Of a DNA stretch of 64,000 nucleotides, positions 10,518-18,609 are shown piece after piece (the stretch's first letter is position 1; every line of letters begins with the position of its first letter). A program made the position numbers and the translations under genes. Source of the stretch: Candidatus Dormiibacterota bacterium (GTDB lineage Bacteria; Chloroflexota; Dormibacteria; Aeolococcales; Bog-877); NCBI GenBank assembly GCA_027306885.1, contig DAHUYV010000012.1:10565-74564 (forward strand). The letters run 5' to 3'. A model generated the notes under the pieces. That model did not search any database, had not been told where the DNA came from, and saw nothing but the letters and a program-made list of their open reading frames with translations.

Positions 10518-10665
10518 GCCAGCCCACCTCCGTCACCGGGTGCGCGGGTACAGCCCCAGAGCTCGCCAACCCGGGTCCCAGCATACCAGAACGGCGCACC
10601 CGGTTCTCGCTGGCGGATGCCCTATCTAGTGGTGCTCCGGGCTCCACACCCCTTCATCTAGTGGA

Positions 10666-12299: not shown

Positions 12300-13616
12300 T
12301 CAGGGGTAAATGCCCCGGGCGCTCGAGGCGCGCGCCACTCGACTGATGGCGAGGGCGTAGGCCGCGGCCCGCAGGGAGATGTGGTGGTGCGCTGAGTAGG
12401 CCCAGACCCGATCGCTGGCGCGCAGCATGGCCCGCTCCAACTGCGCGGAAATCTCCGCCTCGTCCCAGAAGAACGCCTGCAGGTCCTGCACCCACTCGAA
12501 ATACGAGACGGTGACCCCACCGCCGTTGGCCAGGATGTCGGGCACCACCACGATGCCATCCTCGGCCAGCACCGCCTCCGCGGCCGGGGTGACCGGCCCG
12601 TTGGCGCCCTCGGCCACGATTCGCGCCTGCACGTGAGCCGCGTTGTCGGCGTTGATCACGCTCTCGACGGAGGCCGGCACCAGGACTGTCACCGGCAGCG
12701 CCAGCAACTCGTCGCGGGTCACCGGCTCACCGGGGACGCCGCCGGAGCCGATGTGTCCGCCCGCCGCTTTGACCCGCTCCAAGGCATCGATGTCCAGCCC
12801 GTCGCCGTTGTACCAACCGCCGGTGTGATCAGAGACGGCGATCACCCGGCAGCCCGCCTGCGCCAAAAGCCGTGCGCAGGTCGCTCCGACCGAACCGAAT
12901 CCCTCGACCGCGACGCTGGCTCCCTCCAGGGCCAGACCGGTGTTGCGCATGGTGTGCATCAGCACCGTGGCCAGGCCGCGACCCGGGGCCTCCACCCGCC
13001 CCACGGACCCTCCCGCCTCCACCGGCTTTCCCGTAACCGACGCCGTCACCGAGAAGCCGGCGTGCATGGAGAGGGTGTCCATCATCCAGGCCATGACCTG
13101 GGGCGTCGTGCCGATGTCGGGCGCCGGGATGTCCCGCTCCGGACCCAGCAGCAACGCGATCTCGGTGGTGAAGCGCCGGGTAAGGCGCTCCAGCTCACGG
13201 GAGCTGAGCTGCTCGGGGGCCACCCGCACGGCTCCCGCCGCACCGCCGAAGGGCAAAGACATCACCGCCGTCTTCCAGCTCATCAGCATGGCTTGGGCCT
13301 TGGTCGCCTCCAAGCTGGCGTGCGGCTCGTAGCGGATGCCGCCCTTGGCCGGCCCGCGGGCCAGATTGTGATGCACTCGAAAGCCGGTGTAAAGCTCGAC
13401 GCTGAGATCGTCGCGCACCACCGGGAAGTGCACCTGGAAGACCCGCTTCACCTCGCGCAGGACGGCGTGCAGATCTTCGTCGAGGTTGAGAAAGCGAGCT
13501 GCCTCGTCGACCCGGTGCTGCCCGGTCGCATACAGGTCCTCGGCCGGACGCTGCGCGGCGTTGACGCTCACCAGGGGAGTATAGACAGCGCGACGGCCCC
13601 TGGGAGAAGCGTGCAC
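12300..13616 (-). CDS. gdh: Glu/Leu/Phe/Val dehydrogenase (glutamate dehydrogenase)
   Basis: GPAKGGIRYEP substrate-binding motif and Rossmann GFGSVGA NAD(P) motif. Confidence 0.85.
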   Translation of the reverse strand: MHASPRGRRAVYTPLVSVNAAQRPAEDLYATGQHRVDEAARFLNLDEDLHAVLREVKRVFQVHFPVVRDDLSVELYTGFRVHHNLARGPAKGGIRYEPHASLEATKAQAMLMSWKTAVMSLPFGGAAGAVRVAPEQLSSRELERLTRRFTTEIALLLGPERDIPAPDIGTTPQVMAWMMDTLSMHAGFSVTASVTGKPVEAGGSVGRVEAPGRGLATVLMHTMRNTGLALEGASVAVEGFGSVGATCARLLAQAGCRVIAVSDHTGGWYNGDGLDIDALERVKAAGGHIGSGGVPGEPVTRDELLALPVTVLVPASVESVINADNAAHVQARIVAEGANGPVTPAAEAVLAEDGIVVVPDILANGGGVTVSYFEWVQDLQAFFWDEAEISAQLERAMLRASDRVWAYSAHHHISLRAAAYALAISRVARASSARGIYP

Positions 13617-13855
13617 GGTGCTCCGGAGAGGATCGGCTCTGCTGCCGGCTCAGCCCACGCATTGGACCACGCGCAGAACGGTCCGCGCACACGGATCTGC
13701 GTGAGTGTGCAACAATCGGCCTGCGACCTGCACCCCAGCGCCCCACCACAACCACCTCCGTCATCAACACGGCGGTTGGAAAACCACTGCATCACTGCAG
13801 AGATCTGCAGCGCGGCGATCCAAGTCGTCGTGATTAATCCAGAGGGAGGCAAGTA

Positions 13856-14581
13856 ATGCCCCGGACCCCCAAGAAGCCCGCGAGTCGGCGCGCCGCAACG
13901 CGCACCGGAACTCGCACCACTTCGCGCACCCCGCGAAGGACCAGTGCGCACGCCACCACGCCGCGCCGAGCTGGCGCGGTGCGCCGCACCACCCGGACCC
14001 CAGTCGCGAGCATGACCCCCGCCGCGCTCAACCGCGCGCTCACCACCCAGCTCAAGGTGTTGGAGCGGCGGCTGGCGGACATCGAGCGCAAGCTTGACGC
14101 CGCCATCACTCGCGAGCGCGCCACCACCCGCCCGGTGAGCGCCGCACGCGGCACCCGGACGCGGGCCGTCGGGGCGCGCGCCACCACCCGCCGCACCACC
14201 ACCGGGCGCGCTGCCGCCCCGCGGACCACGCGGCGGAGTACCACCACCAGAGGTGCGGGCCGGAGCGCCGCTCCCACCGCCACCCGCCGCGTCGCCGCGG
14301 GCCGGACTCCCCGCGCGGCCGCCGGAACCGGCCGCAGCGCAGCGGCGAGCCCGCGACGCACCACCGCGCGCACCGCTGCCCCGCGCACCACAACCCCGCG
14401 TGCGTCGCGCACCACAACCCCACGTACGCCGCGCACCACAGCCCGCACCCCGAGGGTGGCGGCCAGCCCCCGAACCGCGCCGCGCCGCGCCGCGAGCGCT
14501 GCGGCTCCGCCCGTCAAGAAGCCGGCCCGGCGGAAGGGACGCATCACCCTCGCCGGCGGATCCGCCCCCTCGGCCTCCTAG
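13856..14581 (+). CDS. Extremely basic Arg/Thr/Pro-repeat low-complexity protein with central coiled coil (histone/Hlp-like candidate)
   Basis: Strong SD (GGGAGG) 7 nt upstream of the ATG; 239-nt upstream intergenic region; repeated RTTTPR/TPRTT motifs; coiled-coil LKVLERRLADIERKLDAAI; followed by a perfect hairpin terminator; antisense ORF 13834..14547 is a mirror artifact. Confidence 0.5.
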   Translation: MPRTPKKPASRRAATRTGTRTTSRTPRRTSAHATTPRRAGAVRRTTRTPVASMTPAALNRALTTQLKVLERRLADIERKLDAAITRERATTRPVSAARGTRTRAVGARATTRRTTTGRAAAPRTTRRSTTTRGAGRSAAPTATRRVAAGRTPRAAAGTGRSAAASPRRTTARTAAPRTTTPRASRTTTPRTPRTTARTPRVAASPRTAPRRAASAAAPPVKKPARRKGRITLAGGSAPSAS

Positions 14582-14600
14582 GCCGGAGCTCTGATCCGCT

Positions 14601-14635
14601 GAGTGGGGGGCCGGGTAGGGCCCGGCCCCCCACTC
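14601..14635. terminator. Bidirectional intrinsic-terminator-like hairpin between convergent genes
   Basis: GAGTGGGGGGCCGGG / CCCGGCCCCCCACTC perfect 15-bp inverted repeat with a 5-nt loop, between the basic-protein gene (+) and ltaE (-). Confidence 0.5.
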
Positions 14636-14651
14636 GCTGTGAGCTGACCGG

Positions 14652-15677
14652 TCAGGCCGCCGCGGCTCGCTGGATCAGCCCCGCCGCCCGACCCACGTCG
14701 GCCTGGGTGACGTCAAGGTGGGTCACGCAGCGCACCGTGTGGGGGCCGAAGGCCGTCAGCAGGACCCCCAGCTCCTCGGCGCGGTCGATCACCTCCTGGG
14801 CCGGTCGCGCGGTCTGGAGCAGGACGATGTTGGTCTGCACCGTCTCGCGATCCACCTTGATTCCGTCCACCCCAGCCAGCTCCTTCGCCAGCCAGGCCGC
14901 CTTGGCGTGGTCCTCGGCGAGTCGGGGAAGCTGGTGGTCCAGCGCCCAGAGGCCGGCCGCCGCCAGGATCCCCACCTGGCGCATGCCGCCGCCGAGGCGC
15001 TTGCGCCAGATGTGGGCCCTGGTCCGCGCGTCGCGGCTCCCCACCCACAGCGAGCCGGCCGGGCAGCCCAGTCCCTTCGACAGGGAGAAGTTGACGCTGT
15101 CGACCCCCGCCGTCAGGGCGCAGAGGGGGACTCCCAGGTGGGCCGCAGCGTTGCCCAGGCGAGCACCGTCCAGGTGGACGGAGAGCCCCATTTCATGAGC
15201 GGCCTGCGACGCCTCCTGGAGGCGCGCCAGAGGGGCGACGGTTCCACCGCGGCGGTTGTGGGTCTGTTCCAGGCAGAGCAGGGCGGTGCGGGGCTCATGG
15301 CCGGGGTCAGCCAGTCGGCGAAGCGACTCCAGCTGCGCCGCCGTGGGGCAGCCGGCCAGGGGCGCGTCGAAGTTGCGCATCTGCACCCCGCCCACCACCG
15401 CGGCTCCGCCGAGCTCGTAGTGGAGGACGTGAGCCTCCGCGTCCACCAGCACCTCCTCCCCCGGAGAGGTGGCGGTCAGGATCGCCACCAGGTTGGACAT
15501 GGTGCCACTGGGGCAGAAGAGCGCTGACTCCTTGCCCAGGAGCTCAGCCACCCGCTCCTCCAGCCGGTTGACCGTGGGATCCTCGGCGAAGACATCGTCG
15601 CCCACCTCGGCCGCGCCCATCGCGGCGCGCATCTCCGGGGTGGGCCGGGTCACCGTGTCGCTGCGCAAATCGATCAT
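14652..15677 (-). CDS. ltaE: Low-specificity L-threonine aldolase (PLP-dependent)
   Basis: [14 protein letters not shown]-terminus and PLP-lysine region ([13 protein letters not shown]). Confidence 0.85.
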
Positions 15678-18036: not shown

Positions 18037-18609
18037 GTGCCCGATGTGATCCTGGCGTTTCTGGACGGCGAGCTCATGTATGGCTCGATACCGGCGCTCC
18101 AGATGGACGATCCCTTCTTGGAGGTGGAGCTGCACGGGCTGGACGGCAACAACCGCCAGGCGCTGGTCCCGGCCGTCTCCCTGCGCCAGATCGACCAGGC
18201 CACCGTGCCCCCGGTGCCCGTCGACGTCGACCTGGAGACGTTGCCGCGGGTGGCCCTCCACTTTCAGGATGGCCAGGTCTTCCGGGCCCACGTGATCACC
18301 CCGGCGTCGCTGCAGCGCTACGGCGCCGTCTGGGACGTCATCGAGGCGGGGACCCGCGAGCACCGGACCTTCGCCATCCCCTACACCGCACTCAAGGCCG
18401 CGTTCTACGTGCGGCACTGGGACACCCGCCGCCCCGCGGATCGAATCGCGGGGGACTCGAGGGACCGGGAGCGAACCCGTCTGGCGGAGATCCTGGCCCG
18501 GCGCAGCCGGTCGCCAGTCACCGAGCAGGTCGACCGCCGCTCCGGGCTCCTCGCCCGGCTCGAGGCCGAGGGCGAGTCGCCGCCGGCCGCCGAGAGCCCG
18601 AGGGGGTGA
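18037..18609 (+). CDS. Hypothetical protein with internal tandem duplication (two ~70-aa hxLxFxDGxxhxG modules) and Arg-rich C-terminus
   Basis: GTG start with a GGGGAGAG SD 5 nt upstream; modules VILAFLDGELMYGSI... and VALHFQDGQVFRAHVI...; divergent from the diguanylate cyclase gene. Confidence 0.5.
   Translation: MPDVILAFLDGELMYGSIPALQMDDPFLEVELHGLDGNNRQALVPAVSLRQIDQATVPPVPVDVDLETLPRVALHFQDGQVFRAHVITPASLQRYGAVWDVIEAGTREHRTFAIPYTALKAAFYVRHWDTRRPADRIAGDSRDRERTRLAEILARRSRSPVTEQVDRRSGLLARLEAEGESPPAAESPRG

Follow-up and report, generated by a model that had tools for sequence, protein, structure and literature searches.

Does the gap at 13617-14651 in a contig of Candidatus Dormiibacterota hold a gene, and what could a protein of such unusual composition be for? 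The window, that is the whole stretch of 64,000 nucleotides analysed here (positions 10,565 to 74,564 of contig DAHUYV010000012.1, assembly GCA_027306885.1), contains this gap between two genes of the minus strand. Within the gap lies a plus-strand open reading frame (ORF) which starts with an ATG and encodes 241 amino acids (13856..14581, plus strand). Candidatus Dormibacterota is a soil phylum which occurs worldwide and has no cultured members, and to our knowledge nothing is known of how these bacteria organise their chromosomes. A preliminary description, made from the letters of the sequence, had taken the product for an extremely basic histone- or Hlp-like protein. The comparisons presented here argue for a genuine plus-strand gene which belongs to a small syntenic family, and whose product is perhaps a coiled-coil polycation of the nucleoid.

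The coding strand of the gap

In a sequence of this composition the length of an ORF is no evidence of coding, because stops are likewise missing from two antisense frames, both in the window genome and in its relatives. One antisense ORF of similar length had been mentioned in the preliminary description; this ORF exists (237 aa, 13834..14547, minus strand), but the count was too low, as two antisense frames are open. The GC content of third codon positions (GC3) cannot discriminate between the strands, because the plus ORF and the 237-aa antisense ORF share their wobble position.

Synonymous codon usage was scored with a codon table built from 29 confident window genes. The plus frame scored 0.368, inside the range of real genes (0.36-0.60), and the minus frame scored 0.228, below every real gene. 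The substitution pattern was compared between the window and its orthologue on contig L087. In the best-aligned core of 40 codons, which includes the predicted helix of the protein, 17 synonymous and 7 non-synonymous differences were counted when the alignment was read in the plus frame, and 9 and 14, respectively, when it was read in the minus frame. The 10-codon block RRKGRITLAG (14528-14557) gave synonymous to non-synonymous ratios of 6:1 and 4:3 in the plus and minus frames.

A GGGAGG Shine-Dalgarno sequence is present as had been described; it lies at 13844-13849 (plus strand), 6 nt 5′ of the ATG, and the four lineages in which the gene was compared all have its GGAGG core unchanged. The ATG, this core and the peptide motifs are conserved solely as plus-strand features, and a helix with heptad periodicity is present in the plus frame only. 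The antisense product is a Val/Arg/Ala/Gly mirror of the Thr/Arg/Ala/Pro protein and has no conserved motifs. The open antisense frames are a by-product of composition. On the sequence evidence of codon usage, substitution pattern, conserved translation signals and motifs, and the T-tracts which follow a downstream hairpin in relatives, 13856-14581 is a genuine plus-strand gene, and the earlier choice of this ORF over the antisense one is upheld. Peptides included in the predicted plus-frame product are TPVASMTPAALNR, ALTTQLK, LADIER, LDAAITR, ATTRPVSAAR, AASAAAPPVK and ITLAGGSAPSAS.

Orthologues, gene neighbourhood and flanking signals

Gene calls for exactly this protein exist on 8 public contigs, some of them from the metagenome-assembled genomes (MAGs) GCA_027313475.1 and GCA_027313445.1. 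Though indexed on these 8 contigs, the exact 241-aa sequence was reported absent from a collection of 15 billion proteins, which accounts for the lack of a self-match in the protein searches; such collections may systematically contain too few proteins of extremely low complexity. A query with the full-length protein returned no relatives, because low-complexity proteins filled the 8000 prefilter candidates. With the helix core as query, a partial "Candidatus Dormibacteria" protein of 74% identity (P0001) was found, encoded on contig L086. A pattern scan of JGI metagenomes identified contig L087, which encodes a full-length orthologue of 245 aa. Run exhaustively against 1.84 billion cluster representatives, HMMER returned only P0001, two fragments (P0003 and P0004) and one spurious repeat protein (P0002), which was discarded. 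P0003 and P0004 led to contigs L089 and L088, respectively. The preliminary description had made its reading depend on homologous ORFs in related genomes, and syntenic orthologues exist on all four of these contigs.

In the window, the ORF is divergent from the gene of a glutamate dehydrogenase (GDH; 12300..13571, minus strand; Pfam ELFV_dehydrog, E = 4e-67) and convergent with that of a GntG/low-specificity threonine aldolase family enzyme dependent on pyridoxal phosphate (PLP) (14652..15677, minus strand; Pfam Beta_elim_lyase, E = 6e-96). The GDH gene is listed as 12300..13616. It probably starts at ~13571, because this is where the aligned orthologues place its start, and the 5′ spacer of the ORF would then be ~284 nt long. 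The window aldolase falls in a cluster with a member named [quoted passage not shown]. The same slot of GDH (minus), ORF (plus) and aldolase (minus) is found on L087, and the orthologues on L088 and L089 also lie between GDH and aldolase genes. On L086 the upstream gene order matches that of the window (guaA, guaB, sortase, response regulator, GDH), and the true start of the ORF is an ATG encoding MPRTPRKPA after AAGGAGG. In this related MAG, GDH and the ORF are separated by the insertion of a gene for a class-I S-adenosylmethionine (SAM) methyltransferase (L086:6788-7549), and the promoter-like block and the untranslated region (UTR) are retained downstream of it. Elsewhere in the window, a called gene of 190 aa at ~18037-18609 (plus strand; L001 10182-10754) has no Pfam family and lies between the gene of a GAF/GGDEF protein and infA.

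With the family profile, hmmsearch found neither a homologue nor a paralogue elsewhere in the window or among all ORFs of 80 aldolase loci from other phyla. A contig scan with the neighbouring aldolase gave distant phyla only (≤53% identity) and no Dormibacterota loci, hence no information on synteny. A search with a three-sequence core profile found nothing further, and tblastn against plasmids found nothing. From the slots occupied by the orthologues, the exhaustive scan and the lack of paralogues, the family is therefore real, present in single copy and syntenic, and it has so far been met with only in Candidatus Dormibacterota-type genomes.

Among these genomes GDH is 84-87% identical and the aldolase 70%, and the ORF is 52-67% identical. 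The N-terminal MPRT is invariant in 4 lineages. In the helix region LERRLADIERKLD is identical across three lineages, and the conserved segment of the helix reads P-A-A-(L/I)-N-(R/K)-A-L-x-x-Q-L-K-x-L-E-R-R-L-A-D-I-E-R-K-L-D. A C-terminal motif, GRITLAG (14537..14557, plus strand; 7 residues from the end), is present in the window, L087, L088 and L089, with [RK]RGR[IV]TL[ATS]G as its family form. The tails of the window and L087 proteins are 52% identical, compared to 41 +/- 4% for shuffled tails. From the end of the helix to the C-terminus, the 14537-14557 motif included, the window protein has 150 aa and the L087 protein 149 aa. The two proteins have similar proportions of Arg (22% and 23%), Thr (21% and 20%) and Ala (22% and 22%), and their whole-protein net charges are both +55. 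Since length, composition and charge are kept while the tail sequence is close to shuffled, selection acts on bulk physicochemical properties: it preserves the helix and three short motifs, and in the arms it preserves these bulk properties, not the sequence. Such selection is typical for functional disordered regions. SPKK-like S/T-P-R-R motifs, of which the window protein has 4 and the L087 orthologue 0, were considered as a functional unit and rejected on account of their absence from L087.

In the fourth lineage, on L088 (696-1300) and L089 (4290-4950), the N-terminal arm and the helix are encoded in one frame, and an Arg/Thr/Lys tail with an RRGRVTL(T/S)G end follows in the -1 frame. In the short-read contig L088 the frame switches directly after the helix and the tail ends in RRGRVTLTGAGAA*; precisely there, a difference of 2 nt separates it from the related nanopore contig L089. 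The frame switch in L088 may stem from an error of assembly or from heterogeneity among strains, or it may mark a pseudogene or a genuine frameshift.

The AT-enriched intergenic region of 239 nt which had been described upstream of the ORF stands as reported. This spacer (13617-13855) has 62.3% GC versus 71.7% in the window; among all windows of 239 nt it belongs to the 0.7% with the lowest GC content. About 140 nt 5′ of the ATG it carries an extended -10-like motif, TGTGCAACAAT (TG-n-AACAAT; 13706..13716, plus strand). The form TGTGnnACAAT is invariant in four lineages (window, L086, L087 and L089) and is the sole match in the 64-kb window, where 0.05 matches are expected. The motif is assigned to the ORF because it stays with it in L086 despite the different upstream neighbour. 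We infer that it is a putative promoter element, which would imply an unusually long 5′ UTR of ~130 nt and of conserved length. A scan with sigma-70 and terminator consensus models found no promoter for the plus ORF and did not call the downstream hairpin, which has no T-tract.

A further conserved block of the 5′ UTR is found at 13795..13832 (plus strand). [quoted passage not shown] L089 has an equivalent hairpin of different sequence at this position. The block may be a regulatory element. Folding of the whole 5′ UTR was not significant relative to shuffled sequences (z from -0.1 to -1.9), and neither the Rfam scan of the whole window at gathering thresholds nor a permissive scan of 13500-14700 gave other than chance miRNA-like matches, which fall on the 15-bp hairpin described next.

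Downstream, 20 nt past the stop and between the ORF and the convergent aldolase gene, a GC-rich hairpin with a perfect 15-bp stem and a 5-nt loop forms a candidate terminator (14601-14615 / 14621-14635, with no strand assigned). It folds as 16 bp with a 3-nt loop (z = -5.5 versus shuffled sequences), and its sequence is unique in the window. The perfect terminator hairpin of the preliminary description stands as to its stem, which is GC-rich and 15-16 bp long as in an intrinsic (Rho-independent) terminator. Its position is conserved, and the T-tract of such terminators is missing in the window. In L087 and in L088/L089 a hairpin of different sequence occupies the same position and is followed by a T-tract on the plus strand only, TTTTTT in L087 and TTTCCTCTTTCC in L088/L089. 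In L087 (4578-4640) the stop is followed by two consecutive perfect hairpins, GATCATCGCTGA...TCAGCGATGATC and then GGAGGGAGGCGGGCC...GGCCCGTCTCCC with the TTTTTT, which have a combined z of -7.5.

Architecture of the protein and its known counterparts

The protein of 241 aa contains 22% Arg, 22% Ala, 21% Thr, 9.5% Pro, 2.9% Lys and 2.1% Asp plus Glu. It has a net charge of +55, a pI of 12 and no aromatic residue at all. The extreme basicity claimed for it is borne out, although Arg amounts to 22% and not to the ~25% stated. Relative to the local proteome Thr is the most enriched residue (4-fold), with Arg enriched 2.8-fold.

Residues 1-54 form a basic, disordered N-terminal arm (13856..14017, plus strand; pLDDT ~50) which starts MPRT(P/T)(K/R)(K/R). 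Residues 55-91 (14018..14128, plus strand) form an amphipathic helix with leucine-zipper-like heptads, the sole confident element of the AlphaFold model (pLDDT 80-95), the remainder being disordered. In the heptad register, the a positions are N59, L66, L73 and L80 and the d positions L62, L69, I76 and A83, so that at least four heptads with hydrophobic a and d residues coincide with a confidently predicted helix, as in leucine zippers. All five acidic residues of the protein fall inside this helix. A coiled coil had been predicted in the centre of the protein; the helix with its heptads is there, but it occupies the N-proximal third. The Arg/Thr/Ala/Pro-rich tail, residues 92-227 (14129..14536, plus strand), is disordered (pLDDT <50). 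Within it Tandem Repeats Finder (TRF) detected an array of 2.7 copies with a 24-nt period, which encodes PRTTTPRx (14381-14444, plus strand; score 100, 87% matches), and outside this array only compositional low complexity. The iterated RTTTPR/TPRTT units described earlier are therefore restricted to one array, and they are not conserved among the orthologues.

The protein has no at-threshold family in Pfam, NCBIfam, PHROGs or PADLOC, and a sequence search of PDB retrieved nothing beyond SEC20, to which there is a weak coiled-coil match. Literature on nucleoid proteins of Dormibacterota or on the function of DUF5320, a family discussed below, contained nothing informative. The HU/IHF fold (Bac_DNA_binding, PF00216) was not matched in Pfam at E ≤ 0.1 or at E ≤ 10, nor in NCBIfam. 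Together with the single helix of the AlphaFold model, this agrees with the earlier statement that an HU core is lacking. The same description had regarded the protein as an Arg-for-Lys equivalent of the Hlp/HupB tails. Of this, the substitution of Arg for Lys under GC pressure is plausible, and an Arg-based H1-like tail is what would be expected here, because confident window genes hold 7.9% Arg and 1.5% Lys, but no homology to the Hlp/HupB tails or to histone-like families was found. Since it has neither an HU fold nor PAKKA repeats, the protein is not a relative of HU or Hlp; it represents an orphan family, analogous to the H1-like basic proteins HbhA, AlgP, PhaF and Hc2.

Among proteins which condense DNA through charge neutralisation, Hc1 and Hc2, the eukaryotic protamines and the tails of eukaryotic H1 share the extreme pI and the low complexity. 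The chlamydial Hc1 and Hc2, the protamines and the H1 tails are without a coiled coil, and protamines are much shorter and contain Cys. The HC2 family (PF07382) did not match the window protein, and the N-terminal part of the L088 orthologue reached 16.5 bits relative to a threshold of 40.

HbhA of Mycobacterium tuberculosis is the closest architectural analogue among characterised proteins, having a coiled coil and a basic DNA-binding tail. It consists of an N-proximal hydrophobic segment, a coiled coil of 81 residues and a Lys/Pro/Ala tail of ~40 aa with AKKA repeats; sequence-independent DNA binding requires this tail, which also suffices for it, and HbhA is reported as a nucleoid-associated protein (PMC10665949). 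Unlike HbhA, the window protein is basic in both arms, has an Arg/Thr tail of ~150 aa and a helix of 37 residues, and is without a hydrophobic segment. No sequence similarity to HbhA was found with Pfam or in the exhaustive HMMER scan.

With HupB/Hlp/MDP1 the protein shares a highly basic Ala/Pro low-complexity tail and a high-GC host. It differs in the lack of an HU fold, in Arg instead of Lys, in 21% Thr, in PRTTTPRx instead of PAKKA/KAAK, and in that it would oligomerise through a coiled coil instead of an HU dimer. The basic tail of HupB is thought to clasp DNA, according to Kumar 2010 as cited in PMC10665949. AlgP and PhaF of Pseudomonas resemble the window protein in having a helical N-terminal part and a long polycationic disordered tail. 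They differ from it by KPAA repeats and a phasin-like N-terminal domain, whereas the window protein has basic arms on both sides of the helix; neither a phasin match in Pfam nor KPAA repeats were found in it. AlgP is a histone H1-like protein which facilitates the even spacing of polyphosphate (polyP) granules (PMC9239181), and PhaF binds RNA through a disordered region with KPAA motifs and activates translation (PMC12818456).

Possible targets and meaning of the gene

Based on its architecture, the likeliest mechanism is that this polycation oligomerises through its coiled coil and binds or condenses polyanions, most probably chromosomal DNA, in the manner of a protamine- or H1-like nucleoid protein; we regard this reading as evenly poised between right and wrong. 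The helix would form a coiled-coil dimer or higher oligomer, and a dimer would be a particle with four flexible polycationic arms and a charge of ~+110. Such a multi-armed particle could bind polyanions non-specifically and bridge or condense them. If chromosomal DNA is the target, the protein would amount to a protamine- or H1-like nucleoid protein in which Arg takes the place of Lys, in keeping with a genome of 72% GC and with proteins almost free of Lys. Transcription would probably start at the extended -10-like motif ~140 nt upstream and end at the hairpin past the stop.

Several observations weigh against a nucleoid protein. No homology to any DNA-binding family was detected in Pfam, NCBIfam or PDB, and no T run follows the window hairpin on either strand. 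Comparable basic disordered regions bind RNA (PhaF) or associate with polyP (AlgP), which makes DNA only a plurality guess. The strongest enrichment is that of Thr (4-fold), which goes beyond what binding by charge would call for, and the SPKK-like S/T-P-R-R motifs are not conserved. The tail of L088 is out of frame with the helix; should this be no artefact, that lineage can do without the tail. The target cannot be read from composition, because similar Lys-rich tails bind DNA (HbhA, HupB) or RNA (PhaF) or associate with polyP (AlgP). We rank DNA and the nucleoid first, RNA second, and polyP or other granules third.

The alternative that survives best, though unlikely, is an RNA-binding or ribosome-associated protein whose Arg-rich arms bind mRNA or rRNA, as an RNA chaperone, a translation modulator or a condensate scaffold. 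Arg-rich disordered regions are classical RNA binders, and the strong Shine-Dalgarno sequence and the conserved long 5′ UTR with its small hairpin could permit autoregulation. The binding of RNA by the KPAA-motif region of PhaF, with activation of translation, is a precedent (PMC12818456). The window protein has no RNA-binding domain, however, and its neighbours encode GDH and an aldolase, not ribosomal proteins or enzymes of RNA metabolism; on the present features an RNA target and a DNA target are indistinguishable.

Somewhat less probable still is that the protein is a remote, tail-extended member of DUF5320 (PF17253), which would be compatible with a DNA-condensing polycation; it would then share whatever role these proteins have, with a basic tail added. 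Residues 1-91 resemble this family in the MPR start, the disordered basic/Gly-rich stretch and the coiled-coil helix. DUF5320 proteins differ in being ~100 aa long, with Gly/aromatic-rich linkers and no long tail, and the window protein adds a tail of 150 aa. All four orthologues match the model, as top match in three (12.2, 14.6, 17.2 and 16.1 bits; E 0.012-0.43), and the alignment covers the protein from its N-terminus up to the end of the helix, over profile positions 15-97 of 99. A control sequence composed in the likeness of the family scores 114.7 bits, which confirms that the model has the order of MPR, linker and coiled coil. These scores are nevertheless well under the gathering threshold of 27 bits, and the four matches are not independent, the proteins being mutual homologues. 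The coiled coil and the basic low complexity may alone explain the match, and no DUF5320-like proteins were returned by the exhaustive HMMER scan. As the sole recurrent trace of a known family, the match is a lead towards remote homology or convergence and does not make the protein a member.

A scaffold of granules of the AlgP or PhaF-phasin kind, with the helix or the arms on polyP or polyester granules tethered to the nucleoid and a role in dormancy or starvation, is improbable. The order of a helix and then a basic tail does resemble PhaF and AlgP, and a net charge of +55 would suit polyP. AlgP promotes the even spacing of polyP granules (PMC9239181). Against such a scaffold stand the lack of a phasin or other Pfam match, the lack of ppk or pha genes adjoining the ORF, and arms which are Arg/Thr-rich and not of the KPAA type. 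The weakest alternative, that of no functional plus-strand gene (a chance ORF, a real minus ORF at 13834..14547, or an untranslated leader of the GDH operon), can appeal to two antisense frames open in all orthologues, two minus-strand neighbours, an uninformative GC3, a window hairpin without T-tract and a frameshifted L088 copy, but it is very improbable in the face of the substitutions, the codon usage, the conserved ATG, Shine-Dalgarno sequence and motifs, the heptad helix found in the plus frame only, the plus-strand T-tracts of two lineages and an antisense product without conserved motifs.

A more specific form of the nucleoid reading, which we hold to be quite doubtful, is that of an Arg/Thr-rich "bacterial protamine" specific to Candidatus Dormibacterota, which would make it a hitherto undescribed class of bacterial chromatin protein. 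Such a protein, dimerised through its coiled coil, would condense the nucleoid or form coacervates with nucleic acids or polyP in dormancy, the state from which the phylum takes its name, and its ~50 Thr residues would serve Ser/Thr kinases as a phospho-switch tuning the charge. The phospho-switch is suggested by analogy with RS domains and with the phosphorylation of H1 and protamines, and the four-fold enrichment of Thr invites this speculation.

The impact of these observations is limited because the function is deduced from composition and the family is tiny. As a candidate for an architectural protein specific to one lineage, the ORF is nevertheless a clean one. It illustrates that the histone H1-like solution can be re-coded from Lys/Ala/Pro to Arg/Thr/Ala/Pro where GC content is extreme, and that disordered arms can be held by selection to a constant length, charge and composition while their sequence drifts close to randomness. 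Genes of this kind escape searches which are word-indexed or filtered for composition, and synteny together with a short conserved helix can validate them. The significance would be greater if the protein were in truth a dormancy-linked, phospho-regulated condenser of the nucleoid.

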